A DNA stretch of 64,000 bases from a virus, in IMG/VR virus record IMGVR_UViG_3300020153_000001, positions 71,540 through 135,539 of that record; one strand, written 5' to 3'. A program made the translations under genes and the position numbers. Shown piece by piece: positions 2,501 to 62,561 of this stretch (positions within the stretch are counted from its first letter, which is position 1; each line of letters opens with the position of its first letter). The notes beneath the pieces are model-generated. The model ran no database searches. It was not told the DNA's origin and saw only the letters and a list, made by a program, of their open reading frames with translations.

Positions 2501-2722
2501 CTACCAAAGCGATACAATGGCCGACTCTGGGAACGCACACAGCCGATTTGCCTCTGCGAGAAAAGCTCGCACACTGGCCCACTTGTTCAGTTGCGCCCAG
2601 CGATCTCCATCAACGCGTAGGTCGAGGATGTACGTCGTAATATCGCTGAGTGCCTCAGAGATCAGATGGCTTGCGAGCGCACGTCTGTCTTTAGGTGACA
2701 ATATATTATGCTCCTCTGACAC
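2501..2722 (-). CDS. hypothetical protein (73 aa)
   Basis: Short ORF overlapping the stop of the upstream radical SAM gene. Confidence 0.5.
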   Translation of the reverse strand: MSEEHNILSPKDRRALASHLISEALSDITTYILDLRVDGDRWAQLNKWASVRAFLAEANRLCAFPESAIVSLW

Positions 2723-3476: not shown

Positions 3477-4209
3477 ATCTGCTCGCCTTTAACCAGGAAT
3501 CGGACAGGTAAATCCTATCGACTAGATGCAGCATTGACTTTTGAACCTTCTTATCTAGTCCCATGAACGCGCCGCAACGCTTGCATAACTGTTCCGTCTG
3601 CCATCTAGCAAAGTCTGGGTCGAACAGATCGGCTAACTTTTTCGTCCTTACATTAAGGCTTCTTAATGAATCGATAACACCTCCGATGCAACACACAGTA
3701 TAACCTAGGCTATCTACCGAAAAACCACAACCCCAACCTGAACATCCCGAATGCCAGTCGCACGGTGTTGTTCTATTTATCCCAAAGTCAGACGGATCTA
3801 TAAATGTGTCTTTCACAAATGCTCGATAAAACGCCTTGATATTCTTCTTAAAAGAACCGCGGTCTATAAGAGCCCCTTTTGATTCAGCCCAAGCAAGAAT
3901 ATAATGCGTTGCCTCTGTAAAGCCGTTAGAAACAATCTTTATACGTGCAACGTGCGGATGTAGGCGATCAACGAAATTCAATATATCTGGGTGCAATGTC
4001 GGCTCGCCACCTAGTAACACTATTGTGAACCTTTTTCCCAACGCTAGCATTTGCTCGATAAACGAGTCAACATCTCGCATTGTCATATCGGGGACAGGAA
4101 TATCAGCAATAGAGAGGCCTCTATTGCAGCCCGGACAACGTAGATTACATCGATACGTTATATGGAACTCGGCCGCGTTATTCTTTGGTGTATAGTCTGG
4201 CGCTGTCAT
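3436..4209 (-). CDS. radical SAM protein (tandem paralog)
   Basis: CNLRCPGC, LGGEPTLHP and SNG motifs; shares SxDSxGYTxCCIGG with the adjacent paralog. Confidence 0.85.
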   Translation of the reverse strand: MTAPDYTPKNNAAEFHITYRCNLRCPGCNRGLSIADIPVPDMTMRDVDSFIEQMLALGKRFTIVLLGGEPTLHPDILNFVDRLHPHVARIKIVSNGFTEATHYILAWAESKGALIDRGSFKKNIKAFYRAFVKDTFIDPSDFGINRTTPCDWHSGCSGWGCGFSVDSLGYTVCCIGGVIDSLRSLNVRTKKLADLFDPDFARWQTEQLCKRCGAFMGLDKKVQKSMLHLVDRIYLSDSWLKASRYEYQRLQTKKRQS

Positions 4210-5891: not shown

Positions 5892-7773
5892 GTGTTTTTG
5901 ACTCCGGAGTCAAAAACCGATGGCTAACGAGGCAGTTCTTATTCACGAGCTGTTTTAATACCCGCAGCCCGATACTTCTCCCCGTGTGTGGGTGAGCTGC
6001 CAGCTTAGTAATCTGGTCTTTATGTATTCTATAACGTACTAACACGTCAGGAATATTGTATAATTTACGACCACTCATATAAGCACGAAGCCATAAGTCT
6101 AGGTCGATACAACAACTTAAACGCTCGTCATATCCCCCTAAACTGGTTATACTCTTCTTCCTGTACATTACGCCTGGGTTATTAATGAACCAAGGCCGGT
6201 TCCATAAAACGTATTTCGCTAGCTCATAATAAGAAGGTATGGGCGTACTAGCATGATTTGTTACGTGCAGTATTCTACCTGTGTCATCGTCGAATGCTTC
6301 TAGCTGGCATCCGCAAATATCAATATCTGGGTTCGACTTCATTGCGGACACCATCCTTGCCAGCCACGTTGGGTACGCAATATCGTCGCTATCAAAACAG
6401 GCTACGAGCTCGTGTTTCGCCTCTTTAAGCCCTACATTTCTAGCAGCGCTAGCCCCTCTGTGGTCGGGTAGTACTATTAGCCTTACCCTGCTATCGGACT
6501 TGGCTATATCGTGTAGCTTGTTCTTTGTTGATTCGTTTGACGACCCATCGTCAACCAATATGAGCTCCCAACTGGGCCACGTCTGCGAAGATATTGACTG
6601 GTAGCATTCCTCTAGATATTTGGGTTTCGTGTTATACACAGGAACGACTATAGATACCGGCGTTTCGGTCGCAGTGAACGGCACATCTGGCGGCAAGGTG
6701 CCGTTGTAGACAGCTTGTAGATATTCGGCCCAGCGACGGCCGACTTCGTCCATATTATAGTTTGCCCTTATCACTTCTCTAGCGCGTAAGATATTTGCTT
6801 TATTGCTTTCGCTAGTAGCTTCTAGGATTGCAGTAGCTAGCGTCTTACCGTCGCGCGTCGGCCGAATGGTTACAGAAAATTTGCCATACTTAGACTCAAA
6901 ATATGGTACGCCACCAACTGGCGTAGCAACTGTCGGTATTCCCGCAGCCCACGCTTCCAGCAACGCCAAGCTGCAGCCTTCGCAACGGCTTACAAGGACA
7001 AAGCAGTCAACGGCAGATAAAATGTCGCCGACTTGTGCGCATTTTTCTACAAAACGGGCACGAGGGCATATAGAACGAATATAGTTAACCTCTTTTTCTT
7101 CCGCCGGCCCCACAAACACAGGGATGTATCTGTCACCTAGAACGTTGGCTGCGTTTGCGACCACGTCGACTATCTTGCAACCGTCATCGACAACCCTACC
7201 AACGTAACCTATCACAACGTCATCATCCGACACCTTCCAACGATTTCTTATTTCTTGTCTACCTAGGATGGTATTGCATCGATCCAGGTCAACGCCATTA
7301 ATAATGACAGTTGTAGCTTCCGGCTTTGGTAAAATCGCAGATGCGGCTGGAGATACAGCCACCCATCTATCCACAAGCGGCGCTACAGCAGCCGATAGTC
7401 TCCTTATATAATCGCTGCTGCTGTTCGAGACAAAAACGCTTATGCTGTTTTCACATTTATTAGGCGAAAAACAGCCTCTATACACCACGATCTTATTACT
7501 CGCGAAATTCCATATATCCGGCCTGTATAGTTGGACCGATCCCAAGAGAAGAGCTTCTTCGACAACCAACGGATTATTAAGCGAACTAAGAAACGCAATG
7601 CCGAGATAATTAAACACCTTACTGTCCAACGACTTTGCCAGATTGACAGCGGATCTTGAGTTGCCGCCGAAAGACAAATGATTTACGACAATCCCAACAG
7701 GTATTCTATTGGGATATAGCTCAGACATTAGTCTGGTCCTAATTTCATGCGAAACCTTAATGTCAGGAAACAT
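5860..7773 (-). CDS. bifunctional glycosyltransferase (GT4 + GT2)
   Basis: EGCSLALLEAWAAGIPTV (GT4); SIVVPVYN...VDDGS...FDSDD (GT2). Confidence 0.88.
   Translation of the reverse strand: MFPDIKVSHEIRTRLMSELYPNRIPVGIVVNHLSFGGNSRSAVNLAKSLDSKVFNYLGIAFLSSLNNPLVVEEALLLGSVQLYRPDIWNFASNKIVVYRGCFSPNKCENSISVFVSNSSSDYIRRLSAAVAPLVDRWVAVSPAASAILPKPEATTVIINGVDLDRCNTILGRQEIRNRWKVSDDDVVIGYVGRVVDDGCKIVDVVANAANVLGDRYIPVFVGPAEEKEVNYIRSICPRARFVEKCAQVGDILSAVDCFVLVSRCEGCSLALLEAWAAGIPTVATPVGGVPYFESKYGKFSVTIRPTRDGKTLATAILEATSESNKANILRAREVIRANYNMDEVGRRWAEYLQAVYNGTLPPDVPFTATETPVSIVVPVYNTKPKYLEECYQSISSQTWPSWELILVDDGSSNESTKNKLHDIAKSDSRVRLIVLPDHRGASAARNVGLKEAKHELVACFDSDDIAYPTWLARMVSAMKSNPDIDICGCQLEAFDDDTGRILHVTNHASTPIPSYYELAKYVLWNRPWFINNPGVMYRKKSITSLGGYDERLSCCIDLDLWLRAYMSGRKLYNIPDVLVRYRIHKDQITKLAAHPHTGRSIGLRVLKQLVNKNCLVSHRFLTPESKTHEADSRLRNI
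5896..5915. repeat. 20-bp palindrome, copy 2 (inside the CDS, encodes LTPESK)
   Basis: Exact match in the 3' end of 5860-7773, just upstream of the next gene start at 5891. Confidence 0.95.
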
Positions 7774-9586
7774 TTGCTAAGCTCTTGAGACACGACGAAA
7801 ATTCTCTTTTCAGGATAGCAGATCGATAGGCCATGTCTGGACTGGCTGTAAGCTGTTCTTTACCATGTTTTCGGTAGTTAACTAATATGTCTGGTATGTT
7901 GGTTATTTTCAGTCCTGCCTTAAACGCACGTAACCACAGATCTAAATCCTCGCAATATAGCGAGTTTTCGTTGTAACCCCCGATTTTCACTATTTTACTT
8001 CTTCTAAATATAACGCCAGGATTGTTGATGAGCCACAACCCTCCCGTATCTGCACGTGGCTTTATGCATTCATACGTAATTGCTTCTGGATGCTGCGTCG
8101 TATAGATTGTCTTACCGGTGGTGTCGTCAAATAAGCGTAACTGACACCCGCATATGTCAATATCGGGATTTGCCTTCATTGCAGCAACCATTCTTGCCAA
8201 CCACTTTTGATCGGCAACATCGTCGCTATCCATGTTAGCCACAAGATCGTACTTCGCTACATTAATTGCAACGTTACGGGCAGTAGCAACACCGCAGCGC
8301 ACTGGAAGTCGCACGAGTCTTACTCTAGAGTCCTTGGCAATTTCTTGCAGCTTTTCCGTAGTGCACGTCTGAGTAGACCCGTCATCTACGATCACAAGTT
8401 CCCAGTGTTTCCATGTCTGAGCCTTTATAGAATCCCAATATTCCTGCAAATATTCAGGTTTTGTGTTGTAAACTGGAGTCATTATGGAAACGTAAGTCTC
8501 TGACGGCGTAAATGGCTTATCGGCAGGAGCTTCGCCAGTATGAATAGCGCATAAATATTCTGTCCATCTACGTCCAAACTCGTGGATATTGTAGTTTGCC
8601 AGTATAATATCTTTTGCCCGTCTTCGGCTTTCTTTATCTACCATCACCTTCAATACTGCACGGGCAAGCTCGTCTGCAGAGCACGCGGAAACGTCGACTG
8701 TAGGGCTGCCATATTTGGCCCTGCAATAGGATACGACACCCACATCCGACGAAACCGTTGGTACGCCAGCCGCCCAGGCCTCCATAATAGCTAGACCGCA
8801 CCCTTCTGATAGGCTTGGAAGTACGAAGCAATCCATCGCAGCAAGCGCATCACCCACATGAATCGATGACGACACTATCTTGCTGGAAGGACAAACGGCA
8901 TATATCTTTTCGACTGTCAACTTGTTATAAATTTCGCCTACAAAGACAGGCACAAAACGCTTACCAAGCATCCGCGCAACTTCTGCTAAGAGTTCTGGCT
9001 TTTTGCTCCTGTCGTTTGCTATCCTGCCTAAGTAGCCTAATACGATCTGGTCTTCGCTTACTTTCCAGCGTCGTCTAATTTCGTCGCGTCCAATTATAGG
9101 CAAGCATCTGTTTATATCGACACCATTTAGGATTATCGTTACTGCACTATGGTTTGGCAAAGCGCTTGCCGCCGCAGGCGATACGGCAGCCCAATATTTA
9201 ACATATGGAATCAACGCATTGTGGCATGGTATTCCGGCGCCATGACCGACATATAAGACGTTACCGTCGTTATATAACAGAGGTAGCAGAGGAACTAACG
9301 GGCTACAATTTGCCACTATAGTGATTATGTTTTTGTAGCTTGACCATCGTGTAACGTCGCCATAGTTCACAAGTTTTGTAAATCGTTGTACTTCATCAAC
9401 TAGCTCGATACAATGTCCGTCGTAGTAACCTAGCGCTACGCCAAGAAAATCTATCTTATTCCGATCTACGGATTTAAGTAGATCGGCTATCCACCTTTCG
9501 TAGCCGCCCATAAACATCGCGTAGGCGCTAATTCCAACAACAGCTTTTCCTTTGTCGATTTGTACTTGGCTATGCGCTGCATTCAT
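7763..9586 (-). CDS. bifunctional glycosyltransferase (GT4 + GT2), paralog of 5860-7773
   Basis: EGCGLAIMEAWAAGVPTV; SIMTPVYN...VDDGS...MDSDD. Confidence 0.88.
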   Translation of the reverse strand: MNAAHSQVQIDKGKAVVGISAYAMFMGGYERWIADLLKSVDRNKIDFLGVALGYYDGHCIELVDEVQRFTKLVNYGDVTRWSSYKNIITIVANCSPLVPLLPLLYNDGNVLYVGHGAGIPCHNALIPYVKYWAAVSPAAASALPNHSAVTIILNGVDINRCLPIIGRDEIRRRWKVSEDQIVLGYLGRIANDRSKKPELLAEVARMLGKRFVPVFVGEIYNKLTVEKIYAVCPSSKIVSSSIHVGDALAAMDCFVLPSLSEGCGLAIMEAWAAGVPTVSSDVGVVSYCRAKYGSPTVDVSACSADELARAVLKVMVDKESRRRAKDIILANYNIHEFGRRWTEYLCAIHTGEAPADKPFTPSETYVSIMTPVYNTKPEYLQEYWDSIKAQTWKHWELVIVDDGSTQTCTTEKLQEIAKDSRVRLVRLPVRCGVATARNVAINVAKYDLVANMDSDDVADQKWLARMVAAMKANPDIDICGCQLRLFDDTTGKTIYTTQHPEAITYECIKPRADTGGLWLINNPGVIFRRSKIVKIGGYNENSLYCEDLDLWLRAFKAGLKITNIPDILVNYRKHGKEQLTASPDMAYRSAILKREFSSCLKSLANVS

Positions 9587-10971: not shown

Positions 10972-12993
10972 CTACTCCGGACAGCTAGACAATTCTGACA
11001 GGACTTCGACTGTAGGACGAACAGCGGTTACATATTCCAAGGCTGTCCCGTATTGTACAACGCCGTCTGCAATTCGCTTTATGGTATAAACCCGGTCTAG
11101 CGGCAATACACCGCCGTAATATTCGCTATCGCGGCTATCGCACAATTGCAGCCTTGTGTATATCTCAAAGTCGTAGCCACTACCCAACTCCGGACTATTA
11201 TTAGAACTAGACTCCGAACTGCTTTCATTACTTGACCCTGAAGAATCGATTGGGCTGGTCTGGGCGGGCAGAATCGGCTGGACTATGCGAGGGTCCTGTT
11301 GGCCTAAGAGCAATACGGCTTGGGCATTGGTAGCAGGGCAGTTAGATCCAATATAGATTGCCGGCCAAATTCGGTATCCTTCTGGCGTGGTTCTCCAGTC
11401 AACAGCAATGTAGGGGTCTTCATAATCGGTCCATACTCCTTCATACCAACCTTCTGCGTAAGCGACAGTCCCCGGGTCGTCGCAGAGATGAAAGATGGTG
11501 TAGGTCGTGCCCCCCGAACTGCTTTCGCTACTGGACTCGGAACTGGATTCACTACTAGACTCGCTACTGCTTTCGCTGCTGGATTCGGAGCTGGATTCGC
11601 TACTGGACTCGGAACTGCTTTCGCCGCATGGTAATACTAGTACGTCGTCCATTTGGGAAGAACTGCACAAGCAACCCTCCTTAAAGTAGAGCTCGATTAC
11701 GCTAAACTTTATGCAATTGCCATCGATAGTTGGTGGGCTTGCAAGGGCATAAGCCGTGGTTGTTATTCCATTACAACCACACAACGACTCTAGGCATTCT
11801 TCGCAAGATGAAAACGGCCCGGTTACATCTTCTGGAACAATAGACTCCGTCGGAGCGTTTTGGGTTACATAGCCACACGAGTAAATCCTACCATTAACCA
11901 TTACTCGTACTATAAGTCCTTGCAGAAACGGCAGTACGTCTTGATACCCCTCCAGCTTTATAAGCTTGTTAGGATCATTACAATCTTCTATAACCCAAGT
12001 ACAACGTAAGCAGTCGGTACTAACAACCTCGATAGTGAGAGTGTTAATGCCGACATATTTTTCGCCAGAGTAACCCTTTGTGACAGTGCCGCAGATGAGA
12101 ATATAGTCGCCTTCCTTTATCCTAATTACGACATTTCCTTCATACCGCCCGAGCTCGGTATGTAAAGATGGGAATAGTAGCTTTCTACTAGGATCATTAC
12201 AATCCTCTACTATATAGGTACATTCATCGCAATCATTTATGGTCTCCACGGTTAGCGTTTCGCTGGTATTAGTCTCTGTATATAGGCCCCTTTCCACTTT
12301 GCCGCACATAACAAAATTGGATCCTTCCAGGACGCGTACAAACTGACCTTCATAAGTGTCAAGACCAGGATATTCCGATAGATGGACTTTCCTGTTCTCG
12401 TCGGCACAGTCTTTTACATACCATTTCGGAATACACTCCTCGCAGTCTTTGTAAGGTCCAACAATCCGACGACCGCGCCGCTCTTCGCCGTCCTCGCTAT
12501 AAACAACCTTACCACACGCAACGACTTCATCGTTTTCGTCTAGTACTGCAACAATCAGGTCCACGTATCGCGATAATTCATAGTTTAATGCTGGAAAACG
12601 CAATATCGACTGCGTATTGCAGTCTTCTATACCATACTCGCACACGGAACACGTATCGAGAGGCTCGATTGTAGGTATATCGCTATGTTCTTCTTCTGTA
12701 TAATGCCCAAACTCAATCGTACCGCATACAACAACATGATCAACGTCAGTGACACGGACGAGAGTGCCCCGGCCAAGCTCTGCTAGCGCGTCCTGGCGAT
12801 GGACGACATAGACTCTTCTGTTACTGTCAAAACAGTCTACAACAACCCACACATCGGCGGCGCTAGAACTACTAGACGAACCTGAGCCGCCAGACGAACT
12901 AGATTCGCTAGATGAACTAGGCTCTTCACCGCTAATCGAACAAATATCGTCCGGCAACGGCTTAAACGCTAGTGTTGTATATCGCTTTGCCAT
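10972..12993 (-). CDS. Cys-repeat, Ser-rich protein (putative virion or surface protein)
   Basis: Five ~70-aa repeats (W/Y..EDC...CG.V...C..C) and poly-(SSSE) tracts; lies directly downstream of baseplate genes. Confidence 0.55.
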   Translation of the reverse strand: MAKRYTTLAFKPLPDDICSISGEEPSSSSESSSSGGSGSSSSSSAADVWVVVDCFDSNRRVYVVHRQDALAELGRGTLVRVTDVDHVVVCGTIEFGHYTEEEHSDIPTIEPLDTCSVCEYGIEDCNTQSILRFPALNYELSRYVDLIVAVLDENDEVVACGKVVYSEDGEERRGRRIVGPYKDCEECIPKWYVKDCADENRKVHLSEYPGLDTYEGQFVRVLEGSNFVMCGKVERGLYTETNTSETLTVETINDCDECTYIVEDCNDPSRKLLFPSLHTELGRYEGNVVIRIKEGDYILICGTVTKGYSGEKYVGINTLTIEVVSTDCLRCTWVIEDCNDPNKLIKLEGYQDVLPFLQGLIVRVMVNGRIYSCGYVTQNAPTESIVPEDVTGPFSSCEECLESLCGCNGITTTAYALASPPTIDGNCIKFSVIELYFKEGCLCSSSQMDDVLVLPCGESSSESSSESSSESSSESSSESSSESSSESSSESSSGGTTYTIFHLCDDPGTVAYAEGWYEGVWTDYEDPYIAVDWRTTPEGYRIWPAIYIGSNCPATNAQAVLLLGQQDPRIVQPILPAQTSPIDSSGSSNESSSESSSNNSPELGSGYDFEIYTRLQLCDSRDSEYYGGVLPLDRVYTIKRIADGVVQYGTALEYVTAVRPTVEVLSELSSCPE
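11516..11623 (-). repeat. 12-bp degenerate coding tandem repeat (SSSE)n
   Basis: About 9 synonymously diverged units encoding GESSSESSSE... Confidence 0.85.
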
Positions 12994-14427: not shown

Positions 14428-16035
14428 TTATGAAACCAGGATAGACACGTTCTGGGGATATTGAACTAGTGCTGTGTTCTTTCCAGAAACGCCATAAGCA
14501 GATAATGTAGGCACACAAAGGCTGCTAGAAAATCCGATTGTGTAATAAGTAAGATTAGGTAGCAGGATAGATCCCCCAAATGTGGTATTTGTTATATAAA
14601 CTCCAGACGGTAGTAATGAATTAACTGCATCAGCTAGGTCGGCGCCGTAAACGCATTCTTCAAACATGAGCGAGTTGATAAACTCGCTTGCTTTTGCCTT
14701 TATCGCATTTGCTATTTCATCCGACACGGTTTTTGTTAAATAAATTCTCGTATTAACGTGGCAAATGAATGGCGCTTTTACCAGTATGTCTAGCCCGACA
14801 GGCCTAATCTCGTCACAAGATAGGTATTTTTGCGCGCTATCGACAGCGGGCATATGATAAATAGTAGCATAATAATCTTGCGTTCTTGTTCCGACCTCTT
14901 CCGGTAATACTTCAGTATCGGTGTCGACGAATTCAACTGTTATTTTATGAAACGGCGAAAAAACACCCTCTGCGATACTTGCTATATCCGGAACGAATGG
15001 AAAACCTGTAGGGTTTAGATCAAGGCTAGCTGTTTGCAATGTTATTTCGTATCCCTCGTCGGTAGGCAGCGACGTAATAGATCTTACTTTTGTGACTAAG
15101 TACGATACAGGACACAAGCCCCTCCCAACTGTAAACGACCAGATACCATCATTATTAGAGTTAATCCCTATCAATGTAGCTGTTACGCGTTTTGTTGTGT
15201 AAATAGGTGTTCGCAGAGTTCTTACATAGATATCAATCTTGCCGCCTATAGAAACGGGCAATATACCGCGACGGTCTCGCTGCATTTCGGCGTCATTGGC
15301 GCCAATAACAGATACTGCAATAGTTCCGAGTAGATTGTTGTCATAGTATTTGTTCGTGGAGGCTGTTCTTAGTAGCGAAAGAACCTGTGTGTTGTTAGCT
15401 AGCCCCCTAATCCCAAGACCAGCCAATATCCTGTTTGCAGCTTCTTTGGCGGTTTCGGGATCTGCGCCTCCGTAGAACGACGACGACAAGATCGCGTAAA
15501 GATTAGGTATTTCGAGCGTAGTCGAAAGCGGCGTGTTTTCTTGAATATTATAAACGGACCCGACGGACGTGGCCTTTAATGGCACATCAAACCCCCAATA
15601 AGGACCAACTCGTACTAATATCCGATCTTCCGGACTCAGTCTATATTCTTCAGAAGGAATAGCTCTTACAGTCTCTGTCGATTCGTACGACAGATTGCTG
15701 GTGGTAGTGAATATGGTACCGGCTGGTATCGTGATTACAGATGTCGAACTAACTAGTATTGTGGCCGAGCCTGTGGCGTAGAGACCGTCGCTAATAGAAA
15801 CGCCCAGCCCTTGTAAGAACGATCTAGCAACATCCTCATCGACCAGTCCCGCTACTATATTCTGTAGACCGACCGATTTGAGTTTTCGCTCCACGTCGTC
15901 GGAGATATATCCATATATGGCTGTGGCGGGCTGAACAAGCAATCGATCTATAATGTTGTTCTGGAATGATATATCAGGAAACTGAGAAGAAAGGATGCCT
16001 AATAGGGTTTGCCGAATTGTTGTCACATCAGCCAT
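14428..16035 (-). CDS. baseplate J-like wedge protein
   Basis: ATGSATI...ITIPAGTIF and GGADPETAKEAANRI motifs typical of baseplate J/gp47. Confidence 0.75.
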   Translation of the reverse strand: MADVTTIRQTLLGILSSQFPDISFQNNIIDRLLVQPATAIYGYISDDVERKLKSVGLQNIVAGLVDEDVARSFLQGLGVSISDGLYATGSATILVSSTSVITIPAGTIFTTTSNLSYESTETVRAIPSEEYRLSPEDRILVRVGPYWGFDVPLKATSVGSVYNIQENTPLSTTLEIPNLYAILSSSFYGGADPETAKEAANRILAGLGIRGLANNTQVLSLLRTASTNKYYDNNLLGTIAVSVIGANDAEMQRDRRGILPVSIGGKIDIYVRTLRTPIYTTKRVTATLIGINSNNDGIWSFTVGRGLCPVSYLVTKVRSITSLPTDEGYEITLQTASLDLNPTGFPFVPDIASIAEGVFSPFHKITVEFVDTDTEVLPEEVGTRTQDYYATIYHMPAVDSAQKYLSCDEIRPVGLDILVKAPFICHVNTRIYLTKTVSDEIANAIKAKASEFINSLMFEECVYGADLADAVNSLLPSGVYITNTTFGGSILLPNLTYYTIGFSSSLCVPTLSAYGVSGKNTALVQYPQNVSILVS

Positions 16036-16492: not shown

Positions 16493-16851
16493 CTCGTAGA
16501 TTCCCTTCCTTCTACCGCAAAGTCGTCGACTATAGTCTTGGTAAACATCGGCAGCCGCGTCGATAAATTGCTAGAAATAATAAACGCCCTGCTAGGCGTT
16601 AGGTTCCTCAATAAAAACGCCCTATACATCGCAAGACTGTAGGCAGACTTCAACTGAGCCGTTATCATCTTGCCATCGCTAGCGCGTCGTTCTTGTAACA
16701 CCTCAGCCGGTGTTTTGCCAGAGGCTTGTTTAAAGACGTTATATGCGCTTTCTCCACCATCGTTTAAAGATATATCTTCAGGAACAAACCAATCACTAGC
16801 GCCGTTACTGACGCTAATCATTTCCGACCACATATCGAATATATCAGACAC
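16489..16851 (-). CDS. hypothetical protein (120 aa)
   Basis: ORF overlapping both neighbours. Confidence 0.55.
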   Translation of the reverse strand: MSDIFDMWSEMISVSNGASDWFVPEDISLNDGGESAYNVFKQASGKTPAEVLQERRASDGKMITAQLKSAYSLAMYRAFLLRNLTPSRAFIISSNLSTRLPMFTKTIVDDFAVEGRESTR

Positions 16852-17659
16852 TGTATTTTCCTTTCTGTAACTGATACCAATACTTGATCCGCTCTTCTAT
16901 CTCGGCAATACGCTGACTAACCCTACCAGGGCTTAAGTGCAGCTTTTCTGCTATCTCTTTCTGCGGCGTTTTATTTCTGCCGTGAAGCCCGTAATAGAGC
17001 TCTATAATCGCCTTGTCAATTGGATCAGCATCTATGTAAGCTAGCTCAAGCAGCTGCGTAAAGGCATCCGTCGTGGCAAGCGGAGAAGTAGGGATTTCAG
17101 ATATTCCCTCCGCCGTTTGTCTGACAGTAGTAGCTTCGGGTAGTGCCATCCTGCCCTTTTGTCGTATTTTCTTTATCCTTTCAATGGAAAGACCCGTGTA
17201 GTCCGCCAATTCTTCCGTATTTGGTAGCCTGCCCAGCGTCTGCACTAGCTCCTCTTCAGCGTTATTAAGCATAGTAATATCCATCGACACCTGCTCTGAC
17301 TGCCGTATTATCTGTCTTGTCTGGCCGCCAAGTCGCTTCAGGCGTTGTAAATTTAGGAAAACATGGTTAGTTAGGGGGCCTTTAGATGGATCGTAAGATT
17401 TAATAGCGTCTATGACTAGTTTTTTGGCCCTCGTCCGAAGACTGGGCGTGTCGGCTATATCGGCGGCGTAGTAGTGAATGGCATAGTCTAGTAGACTATT
17501 CATTTTATCGACCAAAGCCGTCATGGCATCCGGTGACTTTGTCTTAACCCAGCTTTCGTACAGGGGAATATACTCTTCTTCCTTAAATTTGTATTTCGAT
17601 CCTGCCTGACCTGTTTGCCTTCTTTCTAGAATAATATCTAATAGCGACCTTTCCAGCAT
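16844..17659 (-). CDS. RNA polymerase sigma factor (sigma70 family, FliA/sigma28-like architecture)
   Basis: Region 2 (AIKSYDPSKG), region 3 (LGRLPNTEELADYTGLSIERI) and region 4 HTH (QKEIAEKLHLSPGRVSQ). Confidence 0.85.
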   Translation of the reverse strand: MLERSLLDIILERRQTGQAGSKYKFKEEEYIPLYESWVKTKSPDAMTALVDKMNSLLDYAIHYYAADIADTPSLRTRAKKLVIDAIKSYDPSKGPLTNHVFLNLQRLKRLGGQTRQIIRQSEQVSMDITMLNNAEEELVQTLGRLPNTEELADYTGLSIERIKKIRQKGRMALPEATTVRQTAEGISEIPTSPLATTDAFTQLLELAYIDADPIDKAIIELYYGLHGRNKTPQKEIAEKLHLSPGRVSQRIAEIEERIKYWYQLQKGKYSV

Positions 17660-17750
17660 AATATATCTCCGCGAAGTGATAGCTAAAAATAAAAAACTCC
17701 GCCAAAACCAATTATACCTTAAATAATCACAAGGCTCTATTTGCTACATA

Positions 17751-17770
17751 TTTTGACTCCGGAGTCAAAA
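17751..17770. repeat. 20-bp palindrome, copy 4
   Basis: Exact match, intergenic between csx15 and the sigma factor gene. Confidence 0.95.
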
Positions 17771-17800
17771 ATAGAACGTAGAAGCGTTCTAAAATTAGCT

Positions 17801-17837
17801 AAAAAGAGAGAGCACCGGCCGAGGGGGCTCGGCCGGT
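17801..17837 (-). terminator. intrinsic terminator after csx15
   Basis: ACCGGCCGAG/CTCGGCCGGT stem, then CTCTCTCTTTTT on the minus strand. Confidence 0.7.
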
Positions 17838-17846
17838 ACTTCCCCC

Positions 17847-18224
17847 TCATCGTTTATTCCGGGCCGAGTCCCGGGCCGCTTGCAGATTAATAATTTCCGC
17901 CACTTCGTATTGTGGCGGAGTAGTTTCGCCGGGGCGGAGGCGCAGGATGGGTGGGAAATAACCCATCCTGCCGTGCAGTTCGGCTAGAACGGCGCAGGCA
18001 GCCGAAGCCAGGGACGGCGGATTGACCAGAATGGGAAGGCTTTGCCACTGGTCGGGCGTGAGCCCGACCTCATCGAGCAAGGCGGCTGCCTGCTTGGGGA
18101 AGGAACAATTGTGGTCAAACTGGCACTTTACGTTTATCACTTTCGTGACCAGTTTACCCGTTAGAGCCTGGATCTGCTCCTGCTGTTGTGCCGTGATGGG
18201 GTGTGCAAAGTTGATCAAGATCAT
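17847..18224 (-). CDS. csx15: Csx15-family type III CRISPR ancillary protein (ring-nuclease-like)
   Basis: MILINFAHP...ILVNPPSL...LAELHGRMGYFP.ILRLRP...YEVAEIINLQ..R.. recognised from memory as the Csx15 signature; AAGGAG SD. Confidence 0.78.
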   Translation of the reverse strand: MILINFAHPITAQQQEQIQALTGKLVTKVINVKCQFDHNCSFPKQAAALLDEVGLTPDQWQSLPILVNPPSLASAACAVLAELHGRMGYFPPILRLRPGETTPPQYEVAEIINLQAARDSARNKR

Positions 18225-18391
18225 TTCACTTCTCCTTTAAAAAAAGCCCAACTCCGGCGCCGCCACGGCGGCAGCGCCACCAAACTTAATTGCCTAGAAA
18301 ATGGCCAAAATTTAGCCGCCTAGTCCCGGAAAACCGTTAATTTTTAGATTATGCGGGAGCCGACACGCGACAAACTATAGATTAGAAACAA

Positions 18392-18417
18392 AAAACTGCG
18401 CTAATTAGCGCAGTTTT
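18392..18417 (-). terminator. 26-bp palindromic terminator after the HD gene
   Basis: AAAACTGCGCTAATTAGCGCAGTTTT perfect palindrome. Confidence 0.6.
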
Positions 18418-18453
18418 CCGTGTTAAGAGTAAAAATTTAAGTAGATAAAAAGG

Positions 18454-19068
18454 TCATTGTGGCATATTTTGTGATCGTACTAGGTGCTTGCATAAAGCTC
18501 GCCTAAATATGGGCTTTGCAAGCCATCTTGCCTTAGCAAAGTCCCACCACGTAACGCATACACTGTCGGCGTAATCAGCATATTTCTCAAAGTCCATGTC
18601 CCATATTGGTAGCTCGCCCCTAGATGCCACAATTCGCTTTACTTCGTTTACTAAGGCGAGGTTGTCAGCAACTTTGACGCGTTTATCGTCGAGTATTGCT
18701 GGGTCCAAAAACGCGGCCTTGCTTATTACTTCTATTAGTTGACGTTCATATTTCTTATGGACGTGCATTCCGGGTAGGCCTCTTATTGGACTGATTATAT
18801 CTCCTATAAACGCTTCTGCCGCGTCGTGTATTAATGCGGCAATATGGATGTCCTTGTCCTGCGGCCATAGCTTCCTGGAAATGATGTGAGCGAGGACGCT
18901 GTGGCTCAAAACGCTAAAAAACTTTGTACAATGCCCCTGAAATCGGCAAATCTTGCTTAGACTGCTTATGATTTCCTCCCAGTCTATATCGTGCGGAGTT
19001 AGCTTTCTTATATCTATGACCCTGCCTGAGGCTGTTTCAAACCTTCCACGGTGCTTATAACGACTCAT
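18454..19068 (-). CDS. HD-domain phosphohydrolase (YfbR/YfdR-like 5'-deoxynucleotidase)
   Basis: CRFQGH...FSVLSHS...ALIHDAAEAFIGDI...VADN. Confidence 0.85.
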   Translation of the reverse strand: MSRYKHRGRFETASGRVIDIRKLTPHDIDWEEIISSLSKICRFQGHCTKFFSVLSHSVLAHIISRKLWPQDKDIHIAALIHDAAEAFIGDIISPIRGLPGMHVHKKYERQLIEVISKAAFLDPAILDDKRVKVADNLALVNEVKRIVASRGELPIWDMDFEKYADYADSVCVTWWDFAKARWLAKPIFRRALCKHLVRSQNMPQ

Positions 19069-19122
19069 AACGTTACTCCTACGGCTAAAGCGGCTTCATA
19101 TATTATAGCCAAAAAATCAACT

Positions 19123-19142
19123 TTTTGACTCCGGAGTCAAAA
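19123..19142. repeat. 20-bp palindrome, copy 5
   Basis: Exact match, upstream of a GGCTATAAT -10-like element for the HD gene. Confidence 0.95.
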
Positions 19143-19240
19143 ATTACATGGTCATTATAGTAGGCAAAATAGACTGATAAATCTAGTCGTGGGCAGTTTC
19201 TTAGGAAACATCCGTAAGAATCGTTTCGATAGAATAGCTA

Positions 19241-19291
19241 AAAAAGAGACAGCCGGCCTACCCGCAGTTTGTACAAACTACGGGTAGGCCG
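19241..19291 (-). terminator. intrinsic terminator
   Basis: CGGCCTACCCG/CGGGTAGGCCG stem, then GTCTCTTTTT on the minus strand. Confidence 0.7.
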
Positions 19292-19298
19292 ACCATTT

Positions 19299-19916
19299 TT
19301 AGCTTGTCTGAGCCGCCCTCTCCAGTGTCCCATCCAGCCACCAGGGCAGTACTTCCTTGTAATCCCCGGCTAAGCTCTGCCGCCAATTCTCCAAAAGCGG
19401 CAGGTTAACCAGGGTTGACAGCAGTGCGAGATTTTCCGGGGTCTGCAGGGCCTCGTCGAACGCGGCGAGGGCATCGACGTACCGATTCACCGCGTCCCAG
19501 AGCGGTATAGAAGCTGGCTCATTCCAGCTTGCCTCCTGGGCTTCCGAAAGGGCCTCCAAAACGAAGAGGGATTCCATTCGGGCCTCTAATAATTCGGCGC
19601 ATATTGCTTCTTCAAGTTCCGGCGCGGTTTGGCCGCGCCGGGCGCCTAACAGTTGAGCGTCCTCTGTCCACAGCCGAATGAAATCCTCACCTAGCTCCGC
19701 CGCGGCGATGGCTACTGGTGGGTGTAAGCAGCCATCCATATCCGGCGGGACTTGGACCCCAAATGCACGACAGCGCCCCAGTGCCGCGGCCAATTGGTAC
19801 GCCGCTAGTTTGGCCTCATAGGAGACCTCTTTCTGTTCCCGGTTCTCGAACTCTTCTAAGGCGGCCGCCTCAAGGGCCTCTTTTAGTTCATCCAGGAAGA
19901 AGAATTCTTGACACAT
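19299..19916 (-). CDS. hypothetical protein, GC-rich
   Basis: Start reassigned to MCQEFF (19916) behind a GGAGG SD. Confidence 0.6.
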   Translation of the reverse strand: MCQEFFFLDELKEALEAAALEEFENREQKEVSYEAKLAAYQLAAALGRCRAFGVQVPPDMDGCLHPPVAIAAAELGEDFIRLWTEDAQLLGARRGQTAPELEEAICAELLEARMESLFVLEALSEAQEASWNEPASIPLWDAVNRYVDALAAFDEALQTPENLALLSTLVNLPLLENWRQSLAGDYKEVLPWWLDGTLERAAQTS

Positions 19917-20140
19917 TTTATTCCCTCCAAAAGTAAAAAAAAAAGGACCGTTCCTCTTGGGGCGGCACCGCACCGCCCGCGTCCCATATTAATTGCCGCG
20001 AAAACTCCAAAAACTTTAGCGGTATCGGGGGGAGGCGGAGCAGTGTACCGCTCCGCCTCCTTTTTCTGCTGATTTCGCAATCAACAAATTTTAGGGCTTT
20101 CTCTATTTGGCTATTCTTTCAGCAGCGTCGAAAACCAACT

Positions 20141-20971
20141 CTATCGTTTGTCGGCCTCCTTGAATGTGCAAGCATAGCACTTGCTAAGCGTGTCTACTAC
20201 AATGTCTTCGTCGAGCTCGTGCCCAAAATATGTGGCGCATCCTATCTGATCACTACCATCATCGTCGACGATACAGACAACAACGTCATAGACACAACCG
20301 TTTAACGTGTCTTCCAGTGTTTTGTACAGCTTCTCCACAGTCGACTGGTCGTTCTGGTCTGTCACGTACTGGCAAATACGTTGCTTAAATTCCTCTATAG
20401 GCATATTACTGAGCGCTTTCGCAACGGTTTCATCAAAATCAAGGATATTAGATAGATTGAAGTTGCTAATACCGAAATCCAAATCCATTGCGTATCGAAC
20501 AGTTTTCATATCCGGCAGAAATAACCCTGCCGGGCAAACAACGTCCCATTGTCGATCAATCTGACATCCGCCAATAGGGTATATATAGATACCGCTATGT
20601 ATGTAGGCCTCAAATGGTATAAGTAGTGAGGCAAGGTATCTTGGCGCGTTGCTATCCTCGCGCAACGGTTCTTCGCATTTGTAGTACCGGTATAGTTTCC
20701 TTGCGAGCTCTTCGTCTTTTACCAAGTCTTTTAGAAAGAACAAAGGCACTACACCATAATGCTCAAGATATTCGTTACCAACGTAAGCTGGTTCGACGAA
20801 GGCAATCGTCAGATCGCCGTTGCCGGTTTCGATAACCCACAGCGCTGTATCGTCAATTTCAACGATATCGTCGTATCTCAAATCTGCGTAACGAATTTTT
20901 TGCAGGTTTCGTGCTTTTAGCTGACGAAAGTCACGCACATCATTTAAACTAAGGCGTAATACTTCGGGCAC
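20141..20971 (-). CDS. hypothetical protein (276 aa)
   Basis: Acidic ORF with an AAGGAGG SD. Confidence 0.6.
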   Translation of the reverse strand: MPEVLRLSLNDVRDFRQLKARNLQKIRYADLRYDDIVEIDDTALWVIETGNGDLTIAFVEPAYVGNEYLEHYGVVPLFFLKDLVKDEELARKLYRYYKCEEPLREDSNAPRYLASLLIPFEAYIHSGIYIYPIGGCQIDRQWDVVCPAGLFLPDMKTVRYAMDLDFGISNFNLSNILDFDETVAKALSNMPIEEFKQRICQYVTDQNDQSTVEKLYKTLEDTLNGCVYDVVVCIVDDDGSDQIGCATYFGHELDEDIVVDTLSKCYACTFKEADKR

Positions 20972-21005
20972 GGTCCAGATCCTCCTTAAGGGTAGCGTTA
21001 ATAAT

Positions 21006-21025
21006 TTTTGACTCCGGAGTCAAAA
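21006..21025. repeat. 20-bp palindrome, copy 6
   Basis: Exact match, intergenic. Confidence 0.95.
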
Positions 21026-21146
21026 TTAAGCCTATAAGATCCCAACCGTCCGATCCACCGACTGTGTAAGTGATAGCTAGTCTGCGCTGTTCTGTGATGG
21101 AACTCGCGTAGGAAGATTGTGGCTGTCGCCTATTGATAAAAAATAA

Positions 21147-21219
21147 TAGGCCGGGCAGGAATCGAACCTGCAGCCGGCGGATTAGAAGTCCGCTGCTCTA
21201 TCCTTTGAGCTACCGGCCC
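21147..21219 (-). tRNA. tRNA-Arg(TCT)
   Basis: GGGCCGG/CCGGCCT acceptor, anticodon loop CTTCTAA, GGTTCGATTCC T-arm; CCA not encoded. Confidence 0.92.
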
Positions 21220-21260
21220 TTGGCTTTTCCTTTAAGATCAGGGAGAAATGCGCCCGCCTC

Positions 21261-22271
21261 CTATCCGGTTATTTGTCTAAACGCCTCGTTGCACGCAGAT
21301 ATCGCAAATTTGCTATCTAGACCGTCGGAGAACGCGGCTATTTCGTCGTGGTCGACAAGCTGTTTGGACAGATTGTTATAAGCAGCATAATAGTCCGGCG
21401 CGAGTAGCTCTTTTCTTTCTGCTAGCTGTTGACCTAACTGGATGATGTTTTCGCGTGTCGTCTTGCAGGGGCTGGCCAAGAAGGTGCAGAGCGCCCGCCT
21501 TACATCTCCTGCTGTTAGGAAATAGCTGATAGCTTCATTAAGAGCGCTCTCATTAAACGTAGGCGGAATGCCGTGTCCAAACTGCGAATAGTATGAAAGC
21601 AAGCTGACCTCTGATATATATGTCCTATTTACAAGCGGCCAAATAGCTGGCGTGACGCAGCCGTCAAATGCGAGGTTTGTCACTATATTACCGTTTATCG
21701 AAGAGCGACTATTTTCGTCGGCTGGCAAGACGACTATATTGTAGCTGTCGAAGTCGTAGTCTACAGCTTTCAAGTTATGACAAGCACACAAGTCATGGAG
21801 CCTACGCGTTGCATATTCTTCTGTCTGTCTTATAAACGACCCGCCCGACATGTAACAGCGCGGAGCAAGCCTGCACAAAACCTTTACAGCTAGCAGATCG
21901 ATAATACGCTCCGACGTATGATATTGGCGAGACATGGCGAAATCGTATATGGCGTAGATTTCCTCCTTTGTCAGATACTTGGCTGCGCGGAACAAAGTTA
22001 AGATCGGAGCATTTACGATAACCGGATATCGCTCTTCAACGCTGGCAAAAGGTATAAGGCCAAGATCGGCGACGGCTATCGGGCACGTTTCAATAAGCCG
22101 ACGTAATAGGCGACGACAGTCGGGAGCAGACCAGTCGTTATATATAGCAGATAGCAGCGTGTATTTTGGGTCACAAAACTTCTCCCTAATATTGCTAATA
22201 GAAACCGACCCGAAGTCTATTCCTCTAGATTTGAAATCCCTTAGCAGGGCTAAAAACGGGTCGTAGACCAT
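21261..22271 (-). CDS. hypothetical protein (336 aa)
   Basis: Long ORF between the two tRNAs. Confidence 0.65.
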   Translation of the reverse strand: MVYDPFLALLRDFKSRGIDFGSVSISNIREKFCDPKYTLLSAIYNDWSAPDCRRLLRRLIETCPIAVADLGLIPFASVEERYPVIVNAPILTLFRAAKYLTKEEIYAIYDFAMSRQYHTSERIIDLLAVKVLCRLAPRCYMSGGSFIRQTEEYATRRLHDLCACHNLKAVDYDFDSYNIVVLPADENSRSSINGNIVTNLAFDGCVTPAIWPLVNRTYISEVSLLSYYSQFGHGIPPTFNESALNEAISYFLTAGDVRRALCTFLASPCKTTRENIIQLGQQLAERKELLAPDYYAAYNNLSKQLVDHDEIAAFSDGLDSKFAISACNEAFRQITG

Positions 22272-22363
22272 GCTAAGTCTCCCATATGACCGCTGCTCGA
22301 AGAGAAACTAAATAATCTTATGGGTGCCCGTAATTTGTTTAACTTGCGGCAAGCGGCCGTAAA

Positions 22364-22436
22364 TAGGCCAGGCAGGACTCGAACCTGCGACCCGTTGCTT
22401 ATAAGGCAACCGCTCTCACCCCTGAGCTACTGGCCT
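22364..22436 (-). tRNA. tRNA-Ile(TAT)
   Basis: AGGCCAG/CTGGCCT acceptor, GTTGC-CTTATAA-GCAAC anticodon arm, GGTTCGAGTCC T-arm. Confidence 0.9.
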
Positions 22437-22457
22437 ACCTCAATTGCTACTGACATG

Positions 22458-26824: not shown

Positions 26825-27191
26825 TCGCAGTCTCCTTAGTTAAAGGGGTTTCTACTAGCCGCAACAGAACGTAGTTTCGGTTGGCAGCTTCGGGGTCGCA
26901 GTGTGGTAACTCTTTATGAATGTTCTCTATGTGAATGCTATATTTCTTGTCGTCGTACTTAAGCTCCAGCACATCTCCTATCTTTCGAGTTGTGACAATA
27001 ATAGAATACTTTCTTGGTGGTTTCTTATGACCAGGGTATAAAAGCTCGATCTCGCGCCAGAATTGCAGTCGAAGGCTGACTCTAGATCTAGTCATTTTCT
27101 TAACAGAAAATGTAATAGGAGGGCTAGCCACATAGAGCTTAGCCTTCTGGTAAAGGACGAGTAATTCCATCTTGTTAGCTCCACGCCCCAA
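26817..27191 (-). CDS. hypothetical basic protein (124 aa), coupled to the RT
   Basis: Overlaps the RT stop and the AAA start; alternative start at 27170. Confidence 0.55.
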   Translation of the reverse strand: MGRGANKMELLVLYQKAKLYVASPPITFSVKKMTRSRVSLRLQFWREIELLYPGHKKPPRKYSIIVTTRKIGDVLELKYDDKKYSIHIENIHKELPHCDPEAANRNYVLLRLVETPLTKETANV

Positions 27192-28140
27192 AGGTTGTCG
27201 AGATCGTCGATTTTGCCCATTCTTCGTTCTTCCTTTCTACAAACTTCTTCCACGATAAAAGTCCTTTTGTCTGATTTGATTCGGGGTAAAACTTCATCAT
27301 AAATCGAAGTCTACGCTTAACAGCTCTCGTAATATGACAACCGTGTTCGTCCACGGCTAGGCCAAGGATGTGTTTGCGACCCTCTTTCACGTCTTGTAAT
27401 TTTACCTTACACAAGGAGAACTCTTTTAGACATTCTTTGAGATAATTTAGCACCTCATCCGCCATACTCTTGTCGTTAAATGAGAAGACCATATCGTCTG
27501 CATACCGCGTGTATACGACATTATTACGCATCGCCCATTGCCATATGCGTATATCATTTTCTAGAAACGCGAAATTAGACAGAATGGGACTTGTTGGGAA
27601 TCCTTGGGGAAGCGCTAACGAGCTTGCAAAATTGTATGGCGGACTAAACGTTCTATTTTCAAAATCGTATGGCGAGATAAATTTGTTATCTGCAAAATCG
27701 AACGATAGCGGTGATAGAAGTGGCCTCCTTATCAGTTCAAATGAAAATTTTCGCATAACGTTGTGGTAATTCTCAACAGCGCGGCTCAGCTTGCAATTGT
27801 GGAAGAAATCTACGATATCTACGGACAGGCTATACCTACAGCCACAGTGGGGTATCGCGGCGTCGACGACATTACCGCCAATCGTAAAACCGTATACGGG
27901 GATATTTTTGTATCTTCGCGTTTGCACAAAATGCTTGTAATTGCGAGTAAGCTGTCGCGCAATTTTTCTCATTATTTTTCTCTGTGCTTTGTCGGGAATA
28001 AAAATTAATCGAATCCTGCCGTCCGGCTTTTTAATCTCCCGTCTATAAATATTTCCGCCTGGCAGCTTGTAATATCTCAACCGTAGTGAGTTGTCCCTAA
28101 TAATAACAACACGCTCTGGCACCTCGTAAACTTTTCCCAT
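27175..28140 (-). CDS. retron-type reverse transcriptase
   Basis: EIKKPDGRIRLI (RT0/1), DAAIPH (NAxxH-like), VDIVDFF, LPQGFPTSPILSN, YTRYADD, ILGL (VTG-like); no maturase or endonuclease domain. Confidence 0.9.
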   Translation of the reverse strand: MGKVYEVPERVVIIRDNSLRLRYYKLPGGNIYRREIKKPDGRIRLIFIPDKAQRKIMRKIARQLTRNYKHFVQTRRYKNIPVYGFTIGGNVVDAAIPHCGCRYSLSVDIVDFFHNCKLSRAVENYHNVMRKFSFELIRRPLLSPLSFDFADNKFISPYDFENRTFSPPYNFASSLALPQGFPTSPILSNFAFLENDIRIWQWAMRNNVVYTRYADDMVFSFNDKSMADEVLNYLKECLKEFSLCKVKLQDVKEGRKHILGLAVDEHGCHITRAVKRRLRFMMKFYPESNQTKGLLSWKKFVERKNEEWAKSTISTTFGAWS

Positions 28141-32106: not shown

Positions 32107-33129
32107 TTACCATCCGATATAGTAACGAGGAGTCGGACAATATCCACCTGGACACGACTGTGGTACAACCGGCCAGGGACTGTTTTGTATGACAGGAGCC
32201 GTAGACCAGCGGACGCTCGTATCTTTCTTCTCCTGCTGCGTCGTTGGCATATCCTTGACCCTGCTCTTTATACTATCGAAATCGTCGTTTCCTATCTTCG
32301 TGAGCACCCTTAAAAGATCATCTGACGTTCTAGGAAGCGGAAATTCGTGTAGACGCGTACCTTTTTCCGAGATTACAAACACATACGGCAGTCCTCGCCG
32401 AATTGCAAGATTAATCCACTCAATGTACTCCTTGGGCGGCGTGTTGCTCGGAGTAACGATATCCTTGTCTATTTTGAAAAACGCCCAGTTCTTAGACTTA
32501 ACATATCTGTCGACTTCGCGCGAGAAGATAACCGACGCTAACTGGGGGGTACGTTTGCTGCTTTCCTCTACTATAATCACACCCCATACTTTTTCGACTA
32601 TAGGCTTAGGCTCAGGTTTCGGTTCTGGCTTTGGTTCAGGTTTTGGCTCAGGTTTAGGTTCTGGCTCAGGTTTTGGCTCAGGTTTCGGTTCTGGCTTTGG
32701 TTCAGGTTTGGGTTCTGGTCCTGGCGGCACCGACACTTCAATAGGCCATTCAGCGTATCCGACGAGCTTGCCGGTATTGACAGTTAACCAAACGAGATAC
32801 TTCGACGGATTATCCGCAGTAAAGAATATAAACGGTTTCGAGTCCCACGATATGGCAGGAACTATCTTTACATTATCGCGCGGCCACACATAAACTTTCG
32901 CCGAATTGAGAACTTCAAGCGGCAAACCAGAAATTGTGAGAATAGCCACTTCTCCATACGTTACTTCGTTCGGGCCACTAAATGAGACGTTTAGTTCTTC
33001 AGGCGGGGCAGGGGGCATTGGTGGTTCGTCCTTTCCGCAACCGAGAATCGGAATCAACAAAATCGTAGCAATAGCGAAAACGCGTTTCATAAGCACACTC
33101 CGGGCGAATGAAAGGGAAGGTCTATTCAT
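32107..33129 (-). CDS. lipoprotein with a (PEPK)n linker
   Basis: Signal peptide with lipobox ILG-C; Pro/Glu/Lys repeat; C-terminal SCPGGYCP tail. Confidence 0.7.
   Translation of the reverse strand: MNRPSLSFARSVLMKRVFAIATILLIPILGCGKDEPPMPPAPPEELNVSFSGPNEVTYGEVAILTISGLPLEVLNSAKVYVWPRDNVKIVPAISWDSKPFIFFTADNPSKYLVWLTVNTGKLVGYAEWPIEVSVPPGPEPKPEPKPEPKPEPKPEPEPKPEPKPEPKPEPKPEPKPIVEKVWGVIIVEESSKRTPQLASVIFSREVDRYVKSKNWAFFKIDKDIVTPSNTPPKEYIEWINLAIRRGLPYVFVISEKGTRLHEFPLPRTSDDLLRVLTKIGNDDFDSIKSRVKDMPTTQQEKKDTSVRWSTAPVIQNSPWPVVPQSCPGGYCPTPRYYIGW
32602..32722 (-). repeat. 12-bp degenerate coding tandem repeat (PEPK)n
   Basis: About 10 synonymously varied units. Confidence 0.85.
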
Positions 33130-62488: not shown

Positions 62489-62561
62489 TGGAGGCGGGCG
62501 GGCTTGAACCGCCAACCCCTAGCCTGCAAGGCTAGTGCTCTCCCATTTGAGCTACGCCCCC
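62489..62561 (-). tRNA. tRNA-Ala(TGC)
   Basis: GGGGGCG/CGCCTCC acceptor with G3:U70; CTAGC-CTTGCAG-GCTAG anticodon arm. Confidence 0.9.

Follow-up and report, generated by a model that had tools for sequence, protein, structure and literature searches.

What does a phage do with Csx15, a protein of type III CRISPR loci, when no CRISPR system stands beside the gene? The question is raised by an open reading frame for a protein of 125 residues in the 64-kb window analysed here (the whole stretch of DNA, 64,000 nucleotides). An initial annotation of the window recognised the gene as Csx15-like and proposed that it was a host gene captured as an anti-CRISPR. The background on which that proposal drew is found in the literature. 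Papers on Csx15 report cA4 binding, with action as a sponge or as a ring nuclease, in agreement with the supposed link to cyclic oligoadenylate (cOA) turnover, and the role of viral ring nucleases as anti-CRISPRs is likewise backed by papers.

Csx15 dimers bind cA4 in a site shared by head-to-tail stacked dimers (Chi et al., 10.64898/2026.01.21.700848). According to the same work, PfCsx15 is a sponge, and CliCsx15 is a slow, metal-independent, cA4-specific ring nuclease that needs H13 and H90 and relieves cA4-dependent plasmid immunity in E. coli (10.64898/2026.01.21.700848). HaCsx15 and CsCsx15 cleave cA3 to cA6, 3'3'3'-cAAG and 2'3'3'-cAAA in vitro, and the composite Csx15 active site arises by filament assembly (Klimavicius et al., 10.64898/2026.10.26.761840). 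In HaCsx15, an enzyme of slow multiple turnover, the substitutions H8A and R125A abolish catalysis and R118A abolishes binding (10.64898/2026.10.26.761840).

Family assignment and conserved residues

The gene (Table 1) encodes a protein that matches the NCBIfam equivalog model NF040560, CAS_Csx15, from end to end (model positions 1-125 of 125) with an E-value of 2.4e-49 and a score of 166.7 bits; the curated cut-off of this model is 35 bits. The HMM search thus bears out the Csx15 signature that was first read from the translation. The Csx15 model of PADLOC also recognises the protein, at E 3.3e-38. Solved structures matched by sequence include 9teu, whose chain is named csx15 (E 2.1e-19, full length), and 9ylu, the Csx15 domain of the Schlafen fusion CbCash (E 1.8e-23), while 9tet is matched weakly (E 0.0019). 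When 5.8 billion proteins were searched, 3210 relatives came back. Among the cellular ones the best reach 65-70% identity, and those with names are Csx15 proteins from Thermoguttaceae MAGs. No Pfam family, DUF1874 included, was found at E-values up to 1, and no PHROGs model matched. Judged from these sequence comparisons, the assignment of the phage protein to the Csx15 family is unambiguous.

Residues H8, H84, R118, R122 and R125 carry the same numbers in the phage protein as in HaCsx15. In an alignment of 41 sequences the first four are invariant and R125 is nearly so; the phage copy has all five. Its H8 and H84 align with H13 and H90 of 9teu (CliCsx15), and its C-terminal arginine cluster R118/R122/R125 is complete, R125 being the last residue of the protein. 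With these functional residues intact, the phage protein is a canonical Csx15 that is predicted to be catalytically competent.

The AlphaFold2 model of the protein shows a beta-alpha pattern, and its mean pLDDT is 94.2. In structure it comes closest to SAVED and CARF domains, with Z from 5 to 7.6, a range that the search tool calls common; first among these is 9r8s, a viral SAVED ring nuclease, with 109 residues aligned at Z 7.6 and rmsd 3.4. Neighbours of this kind, with Z in the common range, fit the description of Csx15 in the literature as a half-SAVED unit. The Csx15 crystal structures are absent among the fold-search matches of the model, and Foldseek searches against PDB and BFVD gave no match below an E-value of 0.001. 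Since Z is in the common range and Foldseek gave no significant match, membership in the Csx15 family is assigned from sequence and not from fold.

Table 1. Features of the Csx15 locus, in positions of the window.
Feature	Position	Strand	Basis or remarks
Csx15 coding sequence, 125 aa	17847..18224	minus	ATG start, TGA stop (ORF list)
Csx15 codon H8	18203-18201	minus	functional residue
Csx15 codon H84	17975-17973	minus	functional residue
Csx15 codon R118	17873-17871	minus	functional residue
Csx15 codon R122	17861-17859	minus	functional residue
Csx15 codon R125	17852-17850	minus	functional residue
Shine-Dalgarno AAGGAG	18232..18237	minus	7 nt before Csx15 ATG; read from sequence
Intrinsic terminator of Csx15	17801..17840	minus	13-bp stem then CTCTCTTTTT; terminator scan and folding
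Hairpin and T-run	18390..18417	minus	37 nt past stop of upstream HD gene; sequence and folding
Palindrome copy, 20 bp, TTTTGACTCCGGAGTCAAAA	17751..17770	none	just past Csx15 terminator; 1 of 28 perfect genome-wide copies
Cassette of 794 bp	17660..18453	none	two terminators, Csx15 and one palindrome copy; between HD and sigma genes; missing in sister phage
HD-domain phosphohydrolase	18454..19068	minus	upstream neighbour, phage backbone; phrog_318 E 4e-34, weak Pfam HD matches
Sigma-70-family factor	16844..17659	minus	downstream neighbour, followed by baseplate module; Sigma70_r3, Sigma70_r4, phrog_351
Baseplate_J ORF	14428-16035		downstream of sigma factor; Pfam match

The phage and the search for CRISPR-Cas genes

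The window forms the final part of an IMG/VR record that is 135,539 bp long; the record is classed as linear, and CheckV puts its completeness at 94%. Nearly all genes of the phage lie on one strand. A Pfam scan of 136 ORFs recognised DNA polymerase A, RNA polymerase beta/beta' domains, baseplate J, a gpA-type large terminase, a sigma-70 factor, a reverse transcriptase and a DNA ligase, among others. The phage that carries Csx15, which we take to come from a hot spring, is large and probably virulent, and no tyrosine integrase was found in its record. Known phages, as represented in the GenBank phage collection, gave neither DNA nor protein matches. Two sequencing runs, labelled hot-springs metagenome and sediment metagenome, contain the DNA of the stretch, with 99% of its sampled words present in them, and either may be the source of the record. 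No RNA run turned up for this DNA.

The initial annotation saw neither cas genes nor an array in the window, and this holds for the entire record. A spaced-repeat scan of the whole 135.5 kb found no CRISPR array; the spaced repeats that it returned all lie in frame within coding sequence, at periods of 48 to 72 bases. A PADLOC scan of the 136 ORFs, from which the 25 families with the largest numbers of matching ORFs were listed, was dominated by reverse transcriptase models. Because such a listing by itself cannot exclude weak cas matches, targeted six-frame profile searches of the 135.5-kb record were run, and these gave no match to Cmr2, Csm1, RAMP or Cas1 and none to SAVED or APE2256-type CARF. 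About 6% of the phage genome may be missing, so that the negatives for cas, CARF and SAVED cover a record that is 94% complete. A phage-borne type III locus to which the gene might have belonged was rejected over that extent, and Csx15 stands alone in the phage. We also considered a cyclase or cOA sensor of the phage that Csx15 would regulate; this was rejected, as SAVED and CARF matches are lacking and a lone SMODS match of 13 bits contains an internal stop and was treated as noise.

The nearest cellular homologs do have the type III linkage that is lacking in the phage record. Such linkage is typical but not obligatory, since about 25% of the Csx15 genes of cells occur in genomes without type III.

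Other features of the window may be recorded here. ARAGORN predicts a tmRNA gene at 1991-2351 on the minus strand, with the tag peptide AEQPLAIAA, and there is a tRNA-Ala(TGC) at 62489-62561. The reverse transcriptase (27175-28140, minus strand) matches PADLOC retron/RT models with E-values down to 3e-35. It is followed by AAA and DUF2201 genes to about 24337, and the block is conserved in the related phages L101 and L105. A tandem pair of radical-SAM genes for proteins of about 256 aa each (2706-3476 and 3436-4209, minus strand) shows weak matches to PADLOC pVip (viperin-like) models, with a best E-value of 7e-12. In-frame tandem repeats at 32602-32719 and 11508-11613 are low-complexity and linker-like. 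They match many Thermoguttaceae-family genomes at 71-88% DNA identity, a likeness that may reflect a shared protein style or chance low complexity.

Insertion site and apparent transcription unit

The site at which Csx15 lies can be compared with that in a sister phage, L105 (IMGVR_UViG_3300031950_000001), whose record of 144 kb has terminal repeats and is rated complete. The gene order is the same in both, and the L105 proteins are 77% (sigma factor), 62% (baseplate J) and 54.5% (HD protein) identical to their counterparts. In L105 nothing lies between the HD gene and the sigma gene, which overlap (7415-8044 and 8001-8822, respectively), and no match to Csx15 is found across the complete 144-kb record. 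The present phage has at this point the 794-bp cassette listed in Table 1.

The wider region 17660-22457, between a conserved gene for a 306-aa protein and the sigma gene, is variable in comparison with L105. It holds Csx15, the HD gene, three orphan ORFs, a tRNA-Arg(TCT) and a tRNA-Ile(TAT), whereas the corresponding region of L105 consists of a 155-aa ORF and the HD gene only. The palindrome TTTTGACTCCGGAGTCAAAA is present in 28 perfect copies in the 135.5 kb and is the dominant intergenic motif, found in about 15 of 44 upstream regions. Its copies in the window start at 22, 5896, 14408, 17751, 19123, 21006, 28358, 35412, 41469, 45601, 52827 and 59742.

The terminator of Csx15 has its stem at 17840-17811, beginning 7 nt past the stop codon, with 9 G-C pairs and a T-rich tail. 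It folds at -42 kcal/mol with a z-score of -6.5, and none of 200 shuffles did as well. The hairpin behind the HD gene folds at -20.6 kcal/mol, with a z-score of -5.2 against shuffles. As this second terminator sits between the HD gene and Csx15, the latter looks like a transcription unit of its own. The gene had been credited at the outset with a Shine-Dalgarno sequence, a promoter-like motif and a terminator. The first and the last of these stand, but the promoter-like motif does not: a consensus scan of the minus strand from 18225 to 18453 found no sigma-70-like promoter. BLAST of the region upstream of Csx15 against the genome and k-mer enrichment over the 44 upstream regions yielded nothing but the known palindrome, and no recurring motif was found upstream of Csx15.

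Probable cellular origin of the gene

Csx15 differs from its genome in composition. Its GC content of 56.9% and GC3 of 65.9% stand against means of 46.9% and 47.1% (z +2.8 and +3.6) for the 109 phage ORFs of at least 100 aa that served as reference, among which it ranks third in GC and second in GC3. The Thermoguttaceae contigs that bear its nearest homologs have 55-58% GC. In an IQ-TREE phylogeny of 61 sequences, the phage protein falls into a clade with seven Thermoguttaceae-like/Planctomycetota sequences (ultrafast bootstrap 98, SH-aLRT 86). Its position inside this clade, weakly supported (91/60), is that of a sister to the seven rather than one nested among them, and the direction of transfer does not follow from the tree alone.

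The nearest cellular homologs are linked to type III-B loci. One of them, P0007 (65% identical), lies directly upstream of cmr2, cmr3, a RAMP gene (cmr4), cmr5 and a Cmr6/Cmr1 fusion, with RT-cas1 and cas2 nearby. Downstream in the same locus are genes whose domain matches identify TM-CARF and CARF-PD-(D/E)xK proteins, which we take to resemble the cA4-activated Cam1 and Can2/Card1 classes. Another homolog, P0003 (69% identical), likewise has the beginning of cmr2 behind it. Among Thermoguttaceae type III-B loci, the one closest to the phage Csx15 (contig L019, 14509-16818) has TM-CARF and CARF-PD-(D/E)xK genes side by side, together with RT-Cas1 and an 826-aa Cmr6/Cmr1 fusion.

With dS near saturation, pairwise dN/dS between the phage gene and its nearest cellular counterparts lies at 0.08-0.22. 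The gene shows no sign of decay, its frame being intact and its family-invariant residues retained, although the protein differs from its nearest cellular counterpart at about 30% of amino-acid positions. Divergence is uneven along the protein: identity to the nearest cellular proteins is 45-53% over residues 1-60 and 83-92% in the C-terminal half, and a three-residue N-terminal extension of those cellular proteins is missing in the phage copy.

The gene is foreign to the phage and was apparently taken from a Thermoguttaceae-like (Planctomycetota) bacterium. Four independent results, namely composition, phylogeny, the type III-B linkage of the nearest cellular homologs and absence from the complete sister phage, support capture of a cellular gene, as had been supposed from the start. 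The putative assignment of the phage to a host draws on gene phylogeny, GC content and shared genes only.

An orphan ORF of 205-224 aa (19299-19973, minus strand) is as foreign-looking as Csx15, with 57% GC and 62% GC3. It has only 18 relatives among the 5.8 billion proteins. Two Thermoguttaceae genomes (L113 and L114) encode homologs 51-55% identical to it. Being GC-rich and having homologs in the same Thermoguttaceae genomes, it is an independent pointer to that host group. A homolog 75% identical is present in the related phage contig L101, between an SNase gene and the reverse transcriptase. Neither this ORF nor that at 20141-20971 has a Pfam or PHROG match, or a usable match in the ESM Atlas.

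Searches for CRISPR spacers were carried out in both directions. Cellular Csx15 loci compared with the phage gave only gene-level matches or chance matches of 17-18 nt. With the phage as query, 40 kb of the 135 kb were covered. One stretch of 20 kb against six genomes (five of Thermoguttaceae/Planctomycetota and one of Fimbriimonadia) found only Csx15, tRNA and gene homologs, and another 20 kb against 201 Thermoguttaceae-family genomes found low-complexity linker repeats and gene homologs. A 38-nt spacer candidate was rejected as coding sequence without an array.

Csx15 homologs in other viral genomes

Scans of 2.9 million IMG/VR contigs with protein and alignment patterns found 13 further contigs that encode a Csx15 relative. 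Cmr2 is absent from all 13, and two have weak, sub-threshold RAMP matches only. On the tree these viral relatives are scattered among clades of Chloroflexota and Armatimonadota, which suggests several independent captures. One of the contigs, L008 (IMGVR_UViG_3300033141_004211; 100 kb, terminal repeats), has two RAMP-like ORFs at about 56.3-58.3 kb with E-values of 1e-4 and 1e-3, below the cut-off, and could carry a phage- or plasmid-borne CRISPR-type module.

In 28,114 genomes of cultured phages, Hoikkala et al. found no Csx15, and Chi et al. saw in this absence a sign that Csx15 may not serve as an anti-CRISPR (10.64898/2026.01.21.700848). Klimavicius et al. (October 2026, 10.64898/2026.10.26.761840), who describe viral Csx15 as rare, reported one viral protein in NCBI clustered nr. 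With metagenomes searched as well, their total of viral sequences rose to more than 20, most of them in prophage regions. From the protein URC17498 of the Lokiarchaeota virus Skoll and the metagenomic sequences they put forward viral Csx15, as 'vCsx15 / AcrIII-3', as a proposed anti-CRISPR, without a functional test. The anti-CRISPR idea is therefore not new.

Discussion

We consider it fairly probable that the phage took a canonical Csx15 from a Thermoguttaceae-like bacterium and uses it to clear the cA4 of a host type III-B system. On analysis of the gene and its setting, the protein is a credible candidate anti-CRISPR. Its role would most likely be the removal of cA4, and perhaps of other cyclic oligonucleotides, blunting type III immunity. 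The observation made in the initial annotation is confirmed, and its interpretation is supported as far as computation reaches, anti-CRISPR activity being the part that we infer.

From the published biochemistry of close family members, we infer the following mechanism. A host Cmr complex would recognise phage RNA and make cA4. Csx15, expressed during infection, would bind it as dimers at dimer-dimer interfaces, stacking head to tail into filaments. The composite site would then combine H8 of one dimer with R118/R122/R125 of the next and convert cA4 to linear A2 products. Filament-dependent cleavage, helped by sequestration, would in this way remove cA4, and the CARF effectors of the host would stay off. 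Against this reading it may be counted that the gene adjoins a late-looking sigma-baseplate module, that the promoter scans found nothing, and that the limited spacer searches were negative. The published Csx15 enzymes turn over slowly, and the expectation of Klimavicius et al. that viruses should favour faster enzymes (10.64898/2026.10.26.761840) also counts against it.

It is unlikely that the phage protein works mainly as a stoichiometric sponge, with cA4 trapped in filaments and cleavage minor. The slow multiple turnover of HaCsx15 would suit such a role, but the phage protein keeps every catalytic residue and belongs to the major clade, whose tested members cleave (10.64898/2026.10.26.761840). 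The large amounts of cOA made by type III systems also argue against pure sponging, and Chi et al. regard sponging as a poor counter to such an output (10.64898/2026.01.21.700848).

Somewhat less likely again is that the protein acts broadly in counter-defence, with CBASS or other cyclic tri- or oligonucleotide signals among its relevant targets as well as the cA4 of type III systems. The nearest cellular relatives speak against it, being tied to type III-B loci with CARF effectors of families that are presumably cA4-activated. The substrate range of CsCsx15 and HaCsx15 in vitro agrees with broad targets, and the possibility has been raised for viral homologs, but co-occurrence of Csx15 with CBASS is only weak (10.64898/2026.10.26.761840) and CliCsx15 is specific for cA4 (10.64898/2026.01.21.700848).

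A recently transferred passenger without a role in infection, or an assembly chimera, would account for the foreign composition and for the absence from the sister phage, yet either is very improbable for a gene with an intact frame, family-invariant residues, a dN/dS of 0.08-0.22 and a ribosome-binding site and terminator of its own, flanked on one contig by backbone genes and a palindrome copy, in DNA of which 99% of sampled words recur in two runs, and with at least 12 other IMG/VR contigs carrying Csx15 independently.

Clearance of host cA4 by a captured Csx15, the reading that we prefer, can be set beside several known systems. Cellular Csx15 proteins of the major clade (HaCsx15, CsCsx15 and CliCsx15/9teu) resemble the phage protein in single-domain size (125 aa), full-length HMM match and key residues; the phage copy differs in being encoded by a phage without CRISPR-Cas of its own. 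PfCsx15 (9tet) is of the same family and shares the idea of cA4-induced filaments, but is non-catalytic, whereas the phage protein keeps its histidines. With the AcrIII class in general the phage protein has in common that a predicted ring nuclease is encoded by a virus lacking the corresponding CRISPR system. It is like vCsx15/AcrIII-3 as a Csx15 homolog in a viral genome with a proposed role as an anti-CRISPR ring nuclease. Those cases lie mostly in prophage regions; here the 135-kb phage that carries the gene encodes an RNA polymerase of its own and yielded no integrase, and in comparison with them its donor lineage and insertion site are traceable.

AcrIII-1 (DUF1874/Crn2) has the same proposed role, that of a stand-alone viral enzyme that destroys cA4 against type III immunity. 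Its fold is unrelated, and it uses in-line 2'-OH attack inside a single dimer, in contrast to the filament assembly and composite site of Csx15. Identity of the phage protein with AcrIII-1/Crn2 was rejected, as there is no DUF1874 match and DUF1874 is not among the structural neighbours, which are SAVED and CARF domains. AcrIII-2 (SAVED, 9r8s) and Csx15 both have a composite active site formed head to tail, with a catalytic histidine. AcrIII-2 is a fused double domain of about 235 aa, whereas Csx15 is a half-size unit that must dimerise, and sequence identity between the two is 6%.

The locus adds nothing categorically new, an anti-CRISPR of this kind having been proposed in October 2026. A stronger claim may also be considered, namely that a large virulent-type phage uses a fully active Csx15, derived from the type III-B locus of its Thermoguttaceae host, as an effective and possibly broad-spectrum ring nuclease, against type III and CBASS-type systems alike. 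We regard this as possible but doubtful. If true, an effective phage Csx15 would contradict the published expectation that Csx15 is too slow to be of use to viruses, and the fast-diverging N-terminal 'head' half of the protein could reflect adaptation to such a role. Two preprints of 2026 are at odds over the usefulness of Csx15 to viruses. The present locus is a clean natural case, with a copy predicted to be catalytically intact, what looks like a transcription unit of its own, a large phage in which no integrase was found, a traceable donor lineage with CARF effectors in its type III-B loci, and a sister phage without the gene at this junction. It offers a defined protein with which to ask whether a filament-forming ring nuclease of slow turnover can defeat type III immunity.
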